This document shows, in pieces, positions 2,274 through 44,437 of a DNA stretch of 49,576 nt. The position numbers and the translations under genes are program-made. Each line of letters opens with the position of its first letter. Positions within the stretch are counted from its first letter, which is position 1. The notes under the pieces were generated by a model. That model searched no databases, had not been told where the DNA came from, and saw nothing but the letters and a program-made list of their open reading frames with translations. Origin of the DNA: Escherichia phage HK639; the sequence record NC_016158.1; one strand, written 5' to 3'.

Positions 2274-3674
2274 ATGCCTGACATTTCAACACCCAATCTG
2301 GACTATGGGAACATGGTCGAGGCGTGGGATATCAACGATGCCCTGATGGGCGGCACGCTCTATATGCGACAGCTGGGCGAGCAATATCTACCGCGCTGGC
2401 CGAAAGAAGACAAAGAGGACTACAAAAAACGCCTCGCCGTGGCCACGCTTCTGCCAGCCTACGAAGAGACCATTAAGCAAAACATCGGGCGTGTATTTGC
2501 TGAGCCCATTAAGCTTGCCGAGAATGTGCCGGATCAGCTGCGAGAGTATGCGAAAAACTTCGACCTTGAGGGGACGCGCCTGGACGTATGGGCGCAGGCA
2601 TTCTTCGGTCTGGCGATGCAGTATGGCCTCTCCCACGCGCTGGTGGATTATCCCAGGGTGGACACCGAAAAGGTGAAAACCAAAGCGGAAGAGAAAGCTA
2701 CTGGCGCGCGCCCATACGTCACCATGCTCAATCCCCGGCAGGTGATCGGATGGAAGTCGAAAATGGTAGACGGCAAAGTGGTGCTGACCGAGCTGCGTAT
2801 CAAAGAGGTAGTTATCGAGGACGGCGACGACTTCGGGCAGACAAAGGTCGAGCAAATTCGTTATCTGACACCTGGAATGGTGCAAATCTACCGCAAGTCG
2901 AAAGGTATCGATGGGGCGGCGAACTGGGAGAAGTTCGACGAATGGACAACATCTCGTAAGGACATAACACTGGTGACGCTCTACACCAAGCGCACCGGGT
3001 TTATGTGTGGTTCACCTCCACTGCTCAATATGGCTCTGCTGAACATCAAGCACTGGCAGAGTCAAAGCGAGCAGGACAACATTCTGCATGTCGCCAGGGT
3101 GCCGTTGCTCACGGTGTTCGGTTTGGAAGAGGGGCAAGAGCTGATAATTGGCTCGTCTTCAGCTACGTCGTTCACTGATCGGCAAAAGCAGGGTCTGGAA
3201 TACGTCGAGCATACAGGCTCCTCCATCGGTGCTGGTAAAGAGTCGCTGGCAGAACTTGTGGAGCAGATGCGCCAGGCTGGTGCGAAGCTGCTGCGTACGG
3301 AAAACACCTCTACCAAATCGGTAGACCAGACCTCCGAAGAGAAAATGCAGGAGCAGTCACCGCTCTACACCATGGCTACCAGCCTTGAAGATGCGATCGA
3401 CAACATTCTGCAAATCATGGCCGAGTACATCGGCGAGAAAGATGGTGGCAACGTTGATGTTCGCACCGAGCTGGATGTTGAGTCGAAAGAATTCAACCCG
3501 CCTGCTGCACTGGCTATTCAGTCCCTGCGCCAGGGCGGTGACCTTCGCCGTATCGATGCGATTAAAGCCCTGCAAAAACTCAACCTGATTGATGCCGATG
3601 CGGATCCTGATACGGTGCTGAGCGAGTTGCTGGCCGAGTCTGCGTCGCTGAGTGAACCACCGCCGGGGGTGTGA
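2274..3674 (+). CDS. Portal protein
   Basis: 466 aa directly after TerL; size, position and acidic C-terminus typical of portals; family assignment from recall only. Confidence 0.7.
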   Translation: MPDISTPNLDYGNMVEAWDINDALMGGTLYMRQLGEQYLPRWPKEDKEDYKKRLAVATLLPAYEETIKQNIGRVFAEPIKLAENVPDQLREYAKNFDLEGTRLDVWAQAFFGLAMQYGLSHALVDYPRVDTEKVKTKAEEKATGARPYVTMLNPRQVIGWKSKMVDGKVVLTELRIKEVVIEDGDDFGQTKVEQIRYLTPGMVQIYRKSKGIDGAANWEKFDEWTTSRKDITLVTLYTKRTGFMCGSPPLLNMALLNIKHWQSQSEQDNILHVARVPLLTVFGLEEGQELIIGSSSATSFTDRQKQGLEYVEHTGSSIGAGKESLAELVEQMRQAGAKLLRTENTSTKSVDQTSEEKMQEQSPLYTMATSLEDAIDNILQIMAEYIGEKDGGNVDVRTELDVESKEFNPPAALAIQSLRQGGDLRRIDAIKALQKLNLIDADADPDTVLSELLAESASLSEPPPGV

Positions 3675-3675
3675 A

Positions 3676-4782
3676 ATGGCCCGCTCCGTTAACGACCGCC
3701 TGCAGGACGAAACGATAGCGCACGGCCTGTATGTAAACCGCTACGGTACTGGCGTCGCTCGTCGGATGGTGGCGCTGCTCAGCAAGATGGATGCCGACCT
3801 GGCTGCCAAACTGCTGGTGCTGCTGGATGGTAAGCGTGCCGATACCTACAGCGCTCGCCGCTTGGCTTCGCTGCTGGCTGGTGTGCGCGTACTGAATCAA
3901 CAGGCCTATGAACCGGTGAATGCTGCGCTGGCACGTGAACTGACGCGCTACGTTGAGTATGAGGTCGGTTATCAGTTTGACCTTTTCAGCAACATCATTC
4001 CGAAGCAGATCCTCAGGCATGTACCGCTCCAGAGCATCGCGCCTGAGCAGGTTTACGCCTCAGCAGTGGCTCAGCCATTCCAGGGGCGCTTGCTGAAGGA
4101 GTGGGGCCAGAAGCTTGAAACGGATCGGCTGGATAAAATCACCAACGCTGTGCGCACCGGTTTCCTTCAGGGTGAAACGGTAGATCAGATCGTTAAACGC
4201 GTTGCCGGAACGCAGAAACTCAATCGTGAAGATGGGGTGATTAACGCCTCACGTCGCGACCTGGCGGTGGTGGCCCGCACGGCTGTAAATCACATGGCCG
4301 CTACTGCGCGTCAGGAGTTCGCACAGGGCAACAGCGATATCGTAAAGGCCAAACAGTGGTCCTCAACGCTGGACACTCATACCAGCCAGTGGTGCATTAT
4401 CCGCGACCGAAAGCTTTACACGCTCGACGGCAAGCCGCTGGGGCATGAAATTCCGTATCTGCGCGGACCCGGCAAAATTCATTTCTGCTGTCGCTCCGGT
4501 GAAATCCTGATTACCAAATCGTGGGAAGAGATGCAGATAGCCTCTGGCGAGCTGAGCATCGCCACGCGCGCCTCAATGGACGGACAGGTGCCATCGCATA
4601 CCAGCTATGCCGAATGGCTCGTCAGGCAACCGTACGCACGGCAGGAGCAGGTGCTGGGCGTTACTCGCGCGCGGATGCTGCGTGACGGCAAAATCACGGT
4701 ACCAGAGATGTTCAACGATGCCGGGGAGTTCCTTACCTTGGACGAACTGCGCCGCGTGGATGCGTCGGCGTTTGAGGGGTAA
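3676..4782 (+). CDS. Head morphogenesis protein (Mu F / SPP1 gp7-like minor head protein)
   Basis: 368 aa; ATG 3676 lies 2 nt after the portal stop (track start 3652 is inside portal); position after portal is typical. Confidence 0.6.
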   Translation: MARSVNDRLQDETIAHGLYVNRYGTGVARRMVALLSKMDADLAAKLLVLLDGKRADTYSARRLASLLAGVRVLNQQAYEPVNAALARELTRYVEYEVGYQFDLFSNIIPKQILRHVPLQSIAPEQVYASAVAQPFQGRLLKEWGQKLETDRLDKITNAVRTGFLQGETVDQIVKRVAGTQKLNREDGVINASRRDLAVVARTAVNHMAATARQEFAQGNSDIVKAKQWSSTLDTHTSQWCIIRDRKLYTLDGKPLGHEIPYLRGPGKIHFCCRSGEILITKSWEEMQIASGELSIATRASMDGQVPSHTSYAEWLVRQPYARQEQVLGVTRARMLRDGKITVPEMFNDAGEFLTLDELRRVDASAFEG

Positions 4783-24023: not shown

Positions 24024-25277
24024 ATGCTTTATAACACCGGCACCATCGCAATTAACGGAAATACCGCAACCGGCACCGGCACAAACTGGACAGCTCCCGC
24101 CAGCCAGGTTCGCTCTGGCCAGACAATTATCGTCATGTCTAACCCGGTGCAGCTGTTCCAGATTTCATCCGTGAACAGCGCCACGTCAATGACGGTTACG
24201 CCTGCCGCTTCCCCGGCGCTGAGCGGCCAGAAGTATGGAATTCTTGTGTCGGACATTATCTCAGTCGACGGCCTGGCACAGGCCATGTCGCAGCTCATCA
24301 AAGAGTACGACGAGAACATTGGCGCGTGGGAGACGTTCGCTACTACCTCAGCAAACCAGACCATCACCGTAACCATCAACGGCACCCCTGTAACGATCCC
24401 CGGCATCGGCAAACTAGCTCTGAAAGGGAGTAACGGTGCGCTGGCTGTTGCTGACGGCGGAACCGGAGCAACTAAGGCAGAAGACGCTCGCACAAACCTC
24501 GGTTTGGGAAGTAGCGCCACGAGGAACGCATACAGCTCCACCGGGGATATGCTTTCAGTAGGTGATTTTGGATTAGGATCGACAAGTGCTCCCGGACTTA
24601 ATGATGCTAATTTGGGACGTCAGACAGCTTTCTCTGCGGCTGGCGGTGCTGGTGCAGTTAACTTTTTCGATGCGTATTCTCCGTTGCTATCAATGGTAAG
24701 AACCACTTCAACAGCGGTACAGATGCAGATAACAGCAGCTGGTAAATCTGCAGTTAGAGGGTGTAATGCGGGGAACTGGACACCGTGGTACGAACTTTAT
24801 TCAACTCAAAATACAACGAAATCCAGCGATGGAACCCTTAAGGCTGCGTCTCCGGTTGCCCGTATCGTAGCGAGCCAGGAAGCCTGCCAGCGCGCCGATA
24901 TAGCGGAGGATGGCTTCTCCTGGTGCGGCTGTGGGACGGCGAACACTGAGGCGGAGGGAATAACCATTTCTCGCCTCGAGGTGGGCGTTTACGTGCTGGC
25001 AGGTTCGGCAGGCTTGGCGTCCGAGGGATGGCAGCTACTGCCACCAATGGACCCCGGCGGCATGGGAGAGCTGGGAGTGGTTGAGGCAGAGCAAACCGAT
25101 AGCGGCGAGCTGACAATCCGTCTTTTCAAGCGAAAATATATCCTGAGCGATGAAGGTGAGGTCATCAAAACCAAAGGTGAACCGATTGACGTCCCGGCGA
25201 ACAGCTGGATCGATGTTCGTCTGGATATGCCAGCGGATAGCATCTGGAACACCAAAGTTTCCGGTTCTTCTCTCTAA
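24024..25277 (+). CDS. Side tail fibre protein
   Basis: 417 aa; N-terminal MLYNTGTIAINGNTATGTGTNWT and LAVADGGTGATKAEDARTNLGLG are typical fibre motifs. Confidence 0.75.
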   Translation: MLYNTGTIAINGNTATGTGTNWTAPASQVRSGQTIIVMSNPVQLFQISSVNSATSMTVTPAASPALSGQKYGILVSDIISVDGLAQAMSQLIKEYDENIGAWETFATTSANQTITVTINGTPVTIPGIGKLALKGSNGALAVADGGTGATKAEDARTNLGLGSSATRNAYSSTGDMLSVGDFGLGSTSAPGLNDANLGRQTAFSAAGGAGAVNFFDAYSPLLSMVRTTSTAVQMQITAAGKSAVRGCNAGNWTPWYELYSTQNTTKSSDGTLKAASPVARIVASQEACQRADIAEDGFSWCGCGTANTEAEGITISRLEVGVYVLAGSAGLASEGWQLLPPMDPGGMGELGVVEAEQTDSGELTIRLFKRKYILSDEGEVIKTKGEPIDVPANSWIDVRLDMPADSIWNTKVSGSSL

Positions 25278-25354
25278 CTCCAGTGACAACCTGCCGAAAT
25301 TCAGCCTTAAAAATTAATAGGCGAACCCAAATAGATCTACACCTCCTTTAATAG

Positions 25355-25374
25355 TACTGTATGTATAAACAGTG
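25355..25374. promoter_or_regulatory. LexA (SOS) box
   Basis: TACTGTATGTATAAACAGTG fits CTGT-N8-ACAG; lies 18 nt upstream of the UmuD'-like start. Confidence 0.8.
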
Positions 25375-25391
25375 CTAAAGAGGTGCAGAAC

Positions 25392-25781
25392 ATGGGATTC
25401 CCATCTCCAGCAGCAGACTATGTTGAAGATCGCATATCGCTCGACAAACGGCTTATCGCGCATCCGGCAGCCACGTACATGATGATAGCGGGCTCTACAT
25501 ACCTGCGAGCTGGCATAATGAAGGGCGCAATGCTTATCGTCGACTCGTCGCTGACACCAAAAGACGGTTCTCTTCTGGTGTGCGCTATAGACGGTGAGTT
25601 CAGGATTATGCGTTACAGGACGCATCCGCAGCCTTGTCTGGAAAACCCTGAAAATGGAAGGAGGGAGTCGTTACCGTTGAAAGACGATGTGTCGGATACA
25701 TCGCGGCCGGTGTTTGGGGTGATCACCTACAGCATCAACGATGCGCGTTCTGGTGAGTTCGACGACTGCCCGGTGATGTAA
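25392..25781 (+). CDS. Pre-processed UmuD'-like protein (P1 HumD-type), catalytic dyad not conserved
   Basis: Starts MGFPSPAADYVE, equivalent to UmuD Gly25 (the RecA-mediated cleavage product). UmuD GDSM aligns with GSTY, and FTVKKL aligns with FRIMRY. SD AAGAGG precedes ATG 25392. Confidence 0.75.
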   Translation: MGFPSPAADYVEDRISLDKRLIAHPAATYMMIAGSTYLRAGIMKGAMLIVDSSLTPKDGSLLVCAIDGEFRIMRYRTHPQPCLENPENGRRESLPLKDDVSDTSRPVFGVITYSINDARSGEFDDCPVM

Positions 25782-25827
25782 TGGGGAAACTGCATAGCTA
25801 TGCCAGGCTGCATGGCTGTGCATTCTC

Positions 25828-26073
25828 TGTGTCACAGATGTGTCATGCATTAATGAGCAATAACGAAACGCGGAAGCATAGAACGACACGCAATGACACA
25901 AATCCGGCGCGAGCGCGGAAAAACTAATGATATTACAGTGTGTTAAATGGTGCTCTACGTTCTTCTAAGCCGTAGGTCGTAGGTTCGAATCCTACAGGGC
26001 GTGCCATTTAAAAACAGTCGCTTACGCCAGTTTCAAGCCAGCCTGATTTTCTCCTTGTGTCGTATTTGTGTCA
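25828..26073. other. attP region with arm-type repeats
   Basis: TGTGTCA-type repeats at 25828, 25839 (direct, 11 bp apart), 25884/25894 (inverted) and 26056/26067. They flank the tRNA-derived core and lie next to int. Confidence 0.65.
25962..26006 (+). other. 3' part of a tRNA-Arg(UCU)-like gene (anticodon loop to CCA) = probable att core
   Basis: CTTCTAA loop, GCCGT, T-arm GTAGG-TTCGAAT-CCTAC, acceptor AGGGCGT-G-CCA. No matching 5' acceptor or D-arm upstream. Confidence 0.7.
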
Positions 26074-27185
26074 TGGTTGCCAAAAATGGCATCAATTTTC
26101 CGTGCGTGTTCGCTTAAGTGGTTCGGTGCCAGGTGAGCGTATCGACGTACCATTTCGATGGACTCCCAGCCGCCCATTTCTTGCAGAACTGACAACGGAA
26201 CGCCGGACTGAATTAACCAGCTCGCCCAGGTATGCCGGAGGTCATGAAAACGGAAGTCTTCTATACCCGCTCTTTCCAGTCCAATGCGCCAGGCGACATT
26301 GTCATCCACTCGCATTTTGCGGACAGCCGGAGTGACGGTTTTATCCGGGCGCGTTGATGGCTTCGTGTGAACGAATACCCACCTGGAACTTTTCCCGATC
26401 TGATCCCTTAACACCCTGCATGCGGTATCATTCAGAGCCACGCCGATAGCCTTGCCCGCCTTCGCGTTCTCCGGATTTACCCATGCAACCTTTCTCTGCA
26501 TATCGACCTGCTGCCACTCCAGATCAATGATGTTGGAGCGGCGCAGGCCGGTTGCCAGTGCAAATATCACCACCGGCTTTATCGACTCCGGCATGCAGGA
26601 GATAAGCCGTTCTGCCTCGTCCCTGGTCAGCCATCGGATGCGTTTGCTGATCGGCTTTTTCGTTTTTATAACCGGGGCCGTTTTAATCCAGCCCCAGTCA
26701 TTAGCCGCAGCCTTGAACAGAGATCGCATGAAAGAAAGGTGCTGACTCTTTGTGGCCTGGCTTACCGGTTTCTCAACATACGGAGGCGGTTCCTTCCCCC
26801 GGCGTATAGCCGCGTCCCTGCGCGACTCCCAGACCTGAATATGCTTACGGTTGACCATCTTCGAAACAGCCTCATGAACCTGATCAGCTGTGATGGTTGA
26901 AATATCCCGGCCGGAGAAATGCCGCAGGAAATATTCGATTTTGGTCTTATCGTCATCGAGTGACCGCTTATGCTCCTTCTCACGGAGCCACCTGATGCAA
27001 CATTCCTCAAACGTCCTCGTCGGTAGTTCCCCAATTTTATCCACCCGCCACGCTTCAGCCTTCAGCTTGTCGTGCAGCTCCTGCGCTTGTTTCTTGTCCC
27101 CCGTACCAAGAGATCGTCTAATTCTTTTCCCTGACGGCGTAACGAAATGACAGTGCCAGACGCCGCCTCTGAGGGTGATTGACAT
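26022..27185 (-). CDS. int: Tyrosine integrase
   Basis: 387 aa; catalytic-region [10 protein letters not shown] and RYAHL; N-terminal arm-binding type [14 protein letters not shown]. Confidence 0.9.
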
Positions 27186-29151: not shown

Positions 29152-29811
29152 TCATGCGGCCTCCGTTTTGATCACGTCGATCGCGCATCCTGGCAGCAAC
29201 TGAACCGCCGACGTCGGGCACTGGTTGCCCCAATGATCCCACCCCGGCGCACCGCAACGACTGAACAACTCGATGCGCGGTACGTCGCCGTAGAGCAACT
29301 CAAGACGGTGGCGAACCTCCCACGGCTTTTCACTGTGGGCACCGAGCGGGCTGTAAACCACCTGCTTAATCCCGGCGTGCTGTCGCTCAAGCCCAGCGCC
29401 GCGGGTGGCAATCAGCAGGTCTTCGGTATTTGCACGGGTGTGGTTGCCGCCGTTCATGCGCGTCTCGGCGTTAAGCAGGTCGAGGAAGTCGTAAAAGTCG
29501 GTGATTTCACCCTCGGCCAGCGCCTTGTTGATGCGCATCTCGGCGTTCTGATTAAGCTTCACCCAGGTAAAGCCCTTCATCGTGCGAACGGTAAAGCCCC
29601 AGGCCTCGGCAAGTTCGATAGCCTCCTGGTTATGCGTGCCGGTGTACCACATCGCCAGCACCGAGTTTTCGGCGGCAAGCTCCCACACCGGCAGGCGCTT
29701 AATGTCGATTAGCTTCATGGTTGAGTAGTGATCGGCGGCAGCGCCGTTGCTGATGGTGTTGCCGTAAGACCAGGGCGGATCAGCGTAGATAAGAGCGTAT
29801 TTTCCGGTCAT
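29152..29811 (-). CDS. MT-A70 family DNA N6-adenine methyltransferase (orphan)
   Basis: YADPPWSY (DPPW) motif at the N-terminus, 219 aa, no adjacent restriction gene. Confidence 0.85.
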   Translation of the reverse strand: MTGKYALIYADPPWSYGNTISNGAAADHYSTMKLIDIKRLPVWELAAENSVLAMWYTGTHNQEAIELAEAWGFTVRTMKGFTWVKLNQNAEMRINKALAEGEITDFYDFLDLLNAETRMNGGNHTRANTEDLLIATRGAGLERQHAGIKQVVYSPLGAHSEKPWEVRHRLELLYGDVPRIELFSRCGAPGWDHWGNQCPTSAVQLLPGCAIDVIKTEAA

Positions 29812-33693: not shown

Positions 33694-33765
33694 TGGTGGA
33701 GTGCTCCGGATTCGAACCGAAGTTTTCATGGGTGATCAGTCCATGCAGGCCCAGCCACACCCCAC
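33694..33765 (-). ncRNA. tRNA-like element (canonical T-arm and ...CCA end, reduced D-arm, 9-nt anticodon-like loop)
   Basis: Minus strand reads GTGGGGTG-TGGCTGGGCCTG-CATGG-ACTGATCAC-CCATG-AAAAC-TTCGG-TTCGAAT-CCGGA-G-CACTCCAC-CA. An 8-bp closing stem is possible. It does not fit a standard cloverleaf. Confidence 0.4.
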
Positions 33766-36291: not shown

Positions 36292-36981
36292 TCAAAGCTT
36301 GTTGTAAGCAATGGACTCATGGATCAGCGCCTTACCCATGATGTACAGCTGGTCCTGATTTTCTTCTGTCACATACCAGTCTTTGTACGCCGGGTTATCG
36401 GAAAGTACAGCCAACTGCAGACCCTGCATTTGCAGGCGCTTAACGTGGAAGTGCTGCCCGAAGACAAACGCATACACCCCGTCAACTTTGAAGTTCCTCA
36501 CTGAAACGTCAAAGAAGAGGCGATCGCCAGACTGTATTGTCGGGCACATGCTGTCGCCGTCTACGGTCATCACCTTCACATCATTTTGAGTGCGGTTCCC
36601 GAAAAGAGATCTGGCATGCTCAGTTGTGAACTCAATAGCATGCAGGACCTCAACAAATTCAGAAATCATAAAAGACCCCGGACCAGCGCTTACTTTCAGG
36701 TCTAAAACATCAACCCGAAAGACATCAATTGTTTCCGAGACCGGTTGGGCCGCCGATGGCACATTACCATCAATCCGCATTTCCCCCACTCCAGAACTAA
36801 GCCATTCCGGCCTTACACCCAGAGCATGAGCTAGCTCGACCATCTTACGGCTGCCGCTCGTTTTACCTGATGTCATCTTTTGAATTGCAGGCTGGGATAT
36901 ACCGACTTTATCAGCCAACTGTCCTTGAGATATGTCAGCGGCCGACATAGCCGCGTTCAGTCGTTCTGCAAATGTTTTCAT
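36292..36981 (-). CDS. cI: CI-type repressor (HTH + S24 LexA-like autopeptidase)
   Basis: HTH ISQGQLADKVGISQPAIQKMTSG; Ala-Gly site (VSAGPG); GDSM serine and VKRL lysine; divergent from cro across the operators. Confidence 0.9.
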   Translation of the reverse strand: MKTFAERLNAAMSAADISQGQLADKVGISQPAIQKMTSGKTSGSRKMVELAHALGVRPEWLSSGVGEMRIDGNVPSAAQPVSETIDVFRVDVLDLKVSAGPGSFMISEFVEVLHAIEFTTEHARSLFGNRTQNDVKVMTVDGDSMCPTIQSGDRLFFDVSVRNFKVDGVYAFVFGQHFHVKRLQMQGLQLAVLSDNPAYKDWYVTEENQDQLYIMGKALIHESIAYNKL

Positions 36982-44362: not shown

Positions 44363-44437
44363 GGGTCAGAAGCACAGCGGTTGTGCGTTCGGCTGTTAAC
44401 CGAATGGTCGAAGGTTCGAATCCTTCCTGTCCCGCCA
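44363..44437 (+). tRNA. tRNA-Asn (GUU)
   Basis: Hand-folded cloverleaf: acceptor GGGTCAG/CTGTCCC (one T-T mismatch), D-arm GCAC-AGCGGTT-GTGC, anticodon arm TTCGG-CTGTTAA-CCGAA, T-arm GAAGG-TTCGAAT-CCTTC, G-CCA. A at position 8 is unusual. Confidence 0.75.

Follow-up and report, generated by a model that had tools for sequence, protein, structure and literature searches.

The DNA analysed here, called the window throughout, is the entire 49,576-bp stretch recorded for Escherichia phage HK639 (NC_016158.1), a lambdoid siphovirus whose genes stand in the vegetative order. They encode a protein with a DUF4055 domain, a second resembling Mu F, a coat of the P22 type, a tail tube of the lambda V type, a tail fibre, an integrase, RecT, CI and lambda P, and the window has patchy similarity to Enterobacter phage ENT1 and to phi80. 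Between the tail-fibre and integrase genes lies a short gene of the humD family, flanked by a predicted LexA box on one side and by a terminator-like hairpin and the putative attachment site of the phage on the other (Table 1).

Table 1. Features of the humD locus, with the distant CI gene used for comparison (window coordinates)
Feature	Position	Strand	Evidence and remarks
Possible -35-like hexamer, TAGATC	25333..25338	+	Weak; aligns with TTGATC of relatives, 16 nt before the LexA box
LexA (SOS) box, predicted	25355..25374	+	TACTGTATGTATAAACAGTG; consensus match and conservation at related loci
Shine-Dalgarno sequence, AGAGGTG	25379..25385	+	6 nt before the ATG; sequence reading; relatives have GGAGGTG in the same place
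humD-family gene, 129 aa plus stop; predicted pre-truncated UmuD' analogue	25392..25781	+	NF051876, UmuD' and P1 HumD matches
Thr36 codon (ACA), aligned with Ser60, the UmuD nucleophile	25497..25499	+	HMMER and MAFFT alignments
Met73 codon (ATG), aligned with Lys97, the UmuD general base	25608..25610	+	HMMER and MAFFT alignments
Acidic C-terminal tail, NDARSGEFDDCPVM, residues 116-129	25737..25778	+	Near-invariant in the family; UmuD has no tail
Terminator-like hairpin, 13-bp stem	25791..25822	+	10 nt past the humD stop; consensus scan only
TTGTGTCAT-like repeats, putative arm-type integrase sites	25838..26074		At 25838, 25893 (minus strand), 26055 and 26066; flank the core
attP core; matches Enterobacter tRNA-Arg(UCU) from its anticodon loop through the 3' CCA and 2 nt beyond	25962..26008	+	Exact match; ARAGORN
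Tyrosine integrase	26022..27185	-	Pfam PF00589, E 3.6e-40
Phage CI-type repressor (HTH and S24)	36292..36981	-	Pfam PF00717 and PF01381; alignment

The product of the gene matches the NCBIfam equivalog model NF051876, "HumD family translesion DNA polymerase", over its whole length (score, 215.1 bits; cutoff, 120; residues 1-129 of 129 aligned), as well as PHROG 811, 'UmuD-like' (E 2e-47), and Pfam PF00717, Peptidase S24 (34.4 bits; gathering score, 23.3). The model of the UmuD subfamily (NF007621/PRK10276) gives 92 bits, under its cutoff of 110, and the protein lacks the marks of UmuD, the autoproteolytic subunit of Pol V: it has no N-terminal arm, no catalytic dyad and no operon with umuC. 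Another name, "LexA family transcriptional regulator", appears in some homologue records; TIGR00498 scores only 37.6 bits against a cutoff of 110.95, at model positions 90-189 alone, and this name was rejected because 129 residues leave no room for an N-terminal DNA-binding domain. Structural comparisons point the same way as the sequence models. In a search against solved structures, the top matches are E. coli UmuD' and UmuD (1umu, E 1.8e-21), with 8gmt among the best; an AF2 model built from 82 diverse sequences (pLDDT 75) finds its best PDB match in UmuD' (1umu; TM 0.76, normalised to target), followed by LexA C-terminal domains. An earlier AlphaFold run on 47 close homologues reached a pLDDT of 43 and was discarded. 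The preliminary description, made from the letters alone, had proposed a UmuD'-like, pre-processed protein, and the full-length equivalog match together with the UmuD' structures bears this out.

Relatives of the gene are numerous, but finding them takes a protein-level search; a megablast search of the locus against phages gives a sole match of 91 bp, in the tail fibre. By tblastn, the protein is 73% identical to HK140 gp28, 65% to P1 HumD, and 64% to both N15 gp26 and phiKO2 gp23. In a large protein database, identity rises to 95% among Enterobacter prophage proteins, many of which are named "HumD family translesion DNA polymerase", and PGAP gives the same family name in E. coli chromosomes. 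The exact protein of the window is present in one NCBI assembly and in two sequencing-run assemblies. Judged by these matches, it is unremarkable within its family, which is known, curated and anchored in experiment. A 48-aa ORF that overlaps the humD stop has no Pfam match and is frameshifted in one relative; it was not counted as a gene. PADLOC gave no match, leaving a role in anti-phage defence unsupported.

How closely does this protein resemble processed UmuD? It begins MGFPSPAADYVE, which HMMER and MAFFT alignments place opposite residues 25-35 of UmuD, with its Met-Gly start at Gly25 of the E. coli protein. A TAG lies in frame at 25332 and the alternative start, GTG at 25383, would add at most three residues, which leaves no room for a cleavable N-terminal arm. 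The ORF had been read at the outset as the form that UmuD takes after cleavage between Cys24 and Gly25, and the armless Met-Gly start, aligned at Gly25, agrees with that reading. E. coli UmuD' (1umu, 1ay9, 1i4v) shares the fold, is 42% identical over residues 2-116 and has an identical N-terminal GFPSPAADYVE; unlike the HumD protein, however, UmuD' arises when a 139-aa precursor, whose gene shares an operon with umuC, cuts itself with the help of RecA; it keeps both Ser60 and Lys97 and ends without the 10-residue acidic tail.

The gene had also been said to sit next to attP in a lambdoid phage, and the neighbourhood can now be described more closely. The attP core is identical to part of a tRNA-Arg(UCU) gene; its last 44 nt have exact matches in representative genomes of 26 species, mostly Enterobacter, and ARAGORN calls tRNA-Arg(tct) at the matching genome sites. 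Rfam returned no match over 25200-26200, and the partial tRNA was named instead by the exact-match genome scan and ARAGORN. According to notes in a phage record, Enterobacter strains have UmuD and UmuC. The integrase gene ends 14 nt past the core, and of the window's eight TTGTGTCAT-like matches, four cluster in a 240-bp stretch around it, likely as arm-type Int sites. Among 80 related loci from IMG/VR, the prophage contig stops at the humD stop codon in 27, as expected of the last gene before attR. The location as such, after the tail fibre and at attP, is not new: in HK140, too, the humD-like copy abuts a putative attP.

This slot can also hold a complete polymerase operon. In Escherichia phage PHB10 and Salmonella phage Oslo, umuDC operons lie between the tail fibre and the integrase, with a LexA box 14-15 nt upstream; these phages, unlike HK639, carry their own UmuC and a full-length, cleavable UmuD with a Cys-Gly site, GDSM and VKRL. 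A tblastn search of the window with phage UmuC gives a best E value of 0.72, and a Pfam scan of its large ORFs finds phage domains or none, with zero Y-family domains, in keeping with the early remark that the window has no umuC or polV gene.

The LexA box is the sole site in the whole window within three mismatches of TACTG(TA)5CAGTA, where 100 shuffles lead one to expect 0, and is likewise the single occurrence of CTGT-N8-ACAG. A near-consensus box had been reported 18 nt before the ORF; the box holds up, but the gap to the ATG is 17 nt. This is also the commonest gap at related loci. With a box defined as CTG-N10-CAG with no more than six mismatches to the consensus, 80 of 83 such loci are boxed and three are not: in 57 the box lies 14-22 nt before the ATG, and in another 23 it lies farther upstream, in most of these 254-283 nt away, where it precedes a 79-aa ORF upstream of humD, as in HK140. 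When the upstream regions of about 50 related loci are stacked, TACTGT...ACAGT stays constant while the centre of the box and its flanks vary, a pattern which argues for selection on LexA binding. In the P1 record, the equivalent site is annotated as binding LexA and is assigned to lxr and humD, and humD is described as LexA-regulated (PMC9603915). In Salmonella, genes under tight LexA control characteristically have a short gap between box and ATG, of 15 bp for umuD and 19 bp for dinI (PMC8072944).

Where transcription starts can be suggested only loosely. The stacked relatives have a conserved TTGATC about 18 nt ahead of the box, where the window reads TAGATC; if this is a -35 element, the first hexamer of the box, TACTGT, could act as the -10, a possible though weak assignment. 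A consensus promoter scan finds zero plus-strand promoters at the humD locus, and the promoter position is put forward solely by homology with the relatives. No terminator was found between the tail-fibre gene and humD, so late transcription may also read through from the former and express the latter.

If the protein is born in its processed form, what becomes of the residues that carry out the processing? In UmuD, Ser60 is said to serve mainly as the cleavage nucleophile, and the C-terminal fragment reportedly suffices for mutagenesis. HMMER and MAFFT alignments, with the register fixed by the K97A structure 8gmt, concur in setting GSTY (Thr36) opposite GDSM (Ser60) and RIMRY (Met73) opposite TVKKL (Lys97); both substitutions had been called by eye in the preliminary description, and the alignment to UmuD and HumD relatives returns the same pair. 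Since it has Thr and Met at the dyad positions, the protein appears to be a non-peptidase homologue of the S24 family and catalytically inert; it is predicted to be incapable of self-cleavage and of cutting host UmuD in trans. The window supplies an internal control in its other S24 protein, the CI repressor, which retains an intact Ala-Gly site, the Ser of GDSM and the Lys of VKRL.

The substitutions are not peculiar to this phage. Among 124 close family members, the Ser60 position is occupied by Thr in 115 and by Ser in six, P1 included, and the Lys97 position by Lys in 60, Met in 56 and Arg in six; the Thr/Met pair itself occurs in 54. At greater distance, in homologues from Hafnia and Aeromonas phages (45-47% identity), Tyr or Gln takes the place of Ser60, and Arg that of Lys97. 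A wider survey covered 1.84 billion cluster representatives, and the single-domain proteins among its matches were sorted into armed (at least 15 N-terminal residues) and pre-truncated (starting MGFPSPA or similar). Ser and Lys are kept together in 3 of 41 pre-truncated homologues versus 45 of 49 with an arm, a contrast that is large even though the representatives include metagenomic fragments and distant alignments may be one residue off. The armed homologues that keep Ser/Lys normally also have an Ala/Cys-Gly site. The earlier suggestion that a protein with no need of self-cleavage can dispense with the dyad is in line with these counts, and the survey suggests that dyad loss tracks pre-truncation as a family rule, to which P1 HumD, keeping both residues, is the exception. 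The pairing of truncation and dyad loss can be seen as a natural experiment, indicating that the dyad serves only self-processing; it would also mean that HumD proteins have no need to cleave host UmuD in trans.

A gene that has lost its arm, its active site and its umuC partner might be nothing but the functionless, decaying remnant of a phage umuDC operon. The operons of PHB10 and Oslo occupy the same slot in complete form, and decay does occur in this family, with humD frameshifted in BTP1 and fragmentary in mEp234, Sf101 and Stx2 phages. The substitution pattern in HK639 and its relatives speaks strongly against this view. Compared by the Nei-Gojobori method with 58 related loci, limited to those with dS above 0.05 (dS up to about 0.9), the window gene has a median dN/dS of 0.084 (range, 0.038-0.169), and the ratio is equally low in the Thr/Met clade taken alone (dS 0.4-0.9; dN 0.02-0.05). 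The 129-aa length, the Met-Gly start and the LexA box are conserved over hundreds of loci, and the exact protein recurs in another prophage whose DNA differs at synonymous sites. These ratios indicate that humD is under strong purifying selection, functional and not decaying; the pseudogene reading was rejected on the dN/dS analysis, and we give it almost no credence.

The closest guide to what the protein does is P1 HumD (AAQ14073), which had been offered as a precedent and turns out to be more than that, since it belongs to the same curated family and is 65% identical. It, too, has 129 residues and a Met-Gly start at the position of Gly25 of UmuD; a LexA box lies 17-19 nt upstream (the site annotated in the P1 record is at 19 nt), no umuC adjoins the gene, and the C-terminal tail is the same, NDARSGEFDDCPV-I/M. 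Unlike the HK639 protein, with its Thr and Met, P1 HumD has Ser (ADSH) and Lys (RIKRY), and the settings differ, humD of P1 lying beside phd-doc in a plasmid prophage whereas that of the window lies between tail fibre and attP in an integrating lambdoid siphovirus. Nearer in position are HK140 gp28, N15 gp26 and phiKO2 gp23, which at 64-73% identity share the slot after the tail fibre, Thr at the Ser60 position and the tail. Unlike the window protein, these three keep Lys at position 97, and in HK140 the LexA box is about 262 nt upstream, ahead of the extra 79-aa ORF.

P1 HumD has been described as an "already activated" UmuD (PMC7092418), and passages in PMC7092418 and PMC8460599 cite McLenigan 1999 for its substitution for UmuD'. 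The P1 record states that it 'functionally complements E. coli UmuD''. The P1 protein is reported to form dimers, to bind both UmuC and RecA filaments, and to bring back mutagenesis and UV survival; good complementation is said to need a high-copy plasmid. Judged by that precedent, the product of the HK639 gene is probably an SOS-induced, ready-made UmuD' analogue that partners host UmuC in a Pol V-like polymerase, a reading to which we assign a probability of roughly 0.7.

On this reading, host LexA would occupy the box in a lysogen, overlapping or abutting the promoter, and keep humD off. Upon DNA damage, active RecA would prompt LexA to cleave itself and humD would be transcribed; in parallel, the phage CI, with its intact S24 dyad, would be cleaved and the prophage induced. 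With its start at the equivalent of UmuD Gly25, HumD would bypass the slow RecA-dependent processing, and the Thr36/Met73 protein would serve as a structural, non-proteolytic S24 fold. A HumD dimer would then join host UmuC, and RecA, in a Pol V-like translesion polymerase earlier than the host pathway could, so that damaged phage and host DNA would be copied at the cost of mutations. We infer four of these elements, namely that LexA binds, that HumD dimerises, that it partners UmuC and that the phage benefits, the third of them from P1 HumD. Were Pol V activation supplied by a phage in this RecA-independent way, Enterobacter lysogens exposed to genotoxic antibiotics could mutate at higher rates.

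Several observations sit uneasily with such a polymerase partner. The sole characterised member of the family, P1 HumD, retains Ser and Lys, unlike the Thr/Met proteins, and reportedly took a high copy number to complement well; the plus-strand promoter escapes the consensus scan, and late read-through may be a further source of expression; and the near-invariant tail, absent from UmuD', is left unexplained, so that an additional or a different role is possible.

One such role would make HumD a modulator or antagonist and not an activator of the polymerase: an uncleavable S24 domain, produced early in the SOS response and sitting on RecA filaments, could damp the cleavage of LexA, CI or UmuD, or recombination; it could act through heterodimers with UmuD or UmuD'; or it could titrate UmuC and lift the UmuD2C checkpoint on phage replication. 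UmuD-family proteins bind RecA filaments, the structure 8gmt is among the best matches, and truncated S60A variants of UmuD retain the ability to form heterodimers and to inhibit recombination mediated by RecA (PMC5342242). A dead active site, for its part, rules out an enzymatic role. What P1 HumD is reported to do, however, is the opposite of antagonism, as both mutagenesis and UV survival are positively restored, and the presence of complete, cleavable umuDC operons in the same slot of some lambdoid phages suggests that selection acts on translesion synthesis itself. A modulator is an unlikely explanation, if the least unlikely of the alternatives to a UmuD' analogue working with host UmuC.

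The tail deserves separate treatment. It had been described as a divergent acidic extension, and this needs correcting: it diverges from UmuD only, and P1 HumD, N15 gp26 and HK140 gp28 are almost identical there. The family pattern, NDARSGEFDDCPV(M/I/L), is nearly invariant, and the window protein conforms to it, residues 116-129 being NDARSGEFDDCPVM. Mean dN is 0.016 at residues 108-129 versus 0.08-0.15 elsewhere in the protein, making this the slowest-evolving segment, and E(F/W)DDxPxΦ-COOH persists as far out as the homologues of Hafnia and Aeromonas phages, which are 45-47% identical. Cellular UmuD proteins all lack it. By these comparisons, the acidic tail is the hallmark of the HumD family and its most conserved segment. 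The gene taken singly adds little, HumD having been characterised and its family named by NCBI; the link between truncation and dyad loss and the highly constrained tail may be of interest to specialists in SOS and translesion synthesis.

What might such a tail be for? It resembles the C-terminal tip of SSB, DFDDDIPF, in its acidic-aromatic-DD order, the four residues that follow to the terminus and the hydrophobic last residue; the SSB-Ct motif is taken from PMC5872125, where it reads DDDIPF, and from PMC7913777. We treat this likeness as a lead and not as a result. Taken at its strongest, it would make the tail (EFDDCPVM-COOH in the window; E-F-D-D-x-P-x-Φ-COOH in general) a docking peptide that mimics SSB-Ct, and the main phage-specific role of HumD would be to reach, or compete for, SSB-interacting proteins: as an adaptor it could link host UmuC, or HumD alone, to the replication and repair proteins that interact with SSB, for example by bringing HumD2-UmuC to SSB-coated gaps, or it could act as a competitor that displaces SSB partners. 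The S24 body would then be a mere scaffold, with a dyad free to decay, and phage HumD would be more than a pre-cut UmuD'. The low dN and the wide retention of the motif would fit such a peptide, as would the low confidence of the tail in the AF2 monomer model, which is expected of a free docking tail. The likeness is nevertheless limited to a short acidic motif in which Pro is off by one position; the last residue is Met, Ile or Leu in most members and not Phe; many pre-truncated homologues are tailless; and a contact with UmuC or a degradation signal would account for the tail equally well. We consider SSB mimicry doubtful, a shade more so than a modulator, and favour the UmuD' analogue. The F-D-D plus four residues to the terminus nonetheless repeats the geometry of the SSB tip, and one cluster representative (P0123) terminates in GGEFDDTPF.

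The slot between tail-fibre and integrase genes, occupied in HK639 by a solo humD (the gene for a pre-truncated UmuD′ analogue), holds a full umuD-umuC operon in Escherichia phage PHB10 and Salmonella phage Oslo. Both phages are lambdoid; their UmuD proteins retain the N-terminal arm, the Cys-Gly site, and the GDSM and VKRL motifs that hold the catalytic Ser and Lys, and a LexA box (TACTGTATATAAAAACAGTA) lies upstream of the operon. A prophage locus (L116) encodes a protein 100% identical to HK639 HumD from non-identical DNA, at another chromosomal integration site, beside DUF535, metallophosphatase, DUF1480 and rsmF genes, where the tRNA-Arg core is absent; thus, the humD cassette moves between phages with different integration modules. 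Frameshifted humD-like copies or C-terminal fragments are found at the equivalent place in BTP1 (NC_042346), mEp234 (JQ182732), Sf101 (NC_027398) and several Stx2-converting phages, in several of them close to the att-bearing end of the record, which indicates that humD decayed repeatedly in some lineages.

In one subgroup, HK140 and about 22 IMG/VR loci, a 79-aa ORF without a significant Pfam match is located between the LexA box and humD, its 3′ end overlapping the humD start; in HK140, dinI is transcribed divergently from this pair. In most relatives (L006-L079), cTTGATC...cGATCaataa immediately precedes the LexA box, the GATC-bearing stretch lying ~18-25 nt upstream of it and placing two Dam GATC sites within the presumed humD promoter; HK639 retains one, in a TAGATC hexamer. 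Methylation state or SeqA binding might be linked to humD expression via these sites.

Downstream, a 48-aa ORF shares a TAATG overlap with the humD stop codon. It has no Pfam match; it is open in about 10 related loci with the same attP arm and frameshifted in another (L017). This ORF more probably represents attP arm sequence than a gene. Four TTGTGTCAT-like repeats, found on either side of the tRNA-Arg attP core, are probably arm-type integrase binding sites.

Coordinates of features in HK639 and related loci
Feature	Record	Position	Strand
TAGATC hexamer	HK639	25333-25338	
48-aa ORF	HK639	25781-25927	+
TTGTGTCAT-like repeats	HK639	25838, 25893 (minus strand), 26055, 26066; span 25838-26074	
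MT-A70 methyltransferase	HK639	29152-29811	-
tRNA-Ile(GAT)	HK639	33694-33763	-
tRNA-Asn(GTT)	HK639	44363-44437	+
79-aa ORF	HK140 (L002)	2762-3001	
umuD-umuC	PHB10 (L111)	2429-4119	
umuD-umuC	Oslo (L112)	2609-4119	
humD	GCA_050368265.1 contig (L116)	1431-1820	

Elsewhere, HK639 encodes two tRNAs, and its early-left region carries a gene for a DNA methyltransferase of the MT-A70 family.
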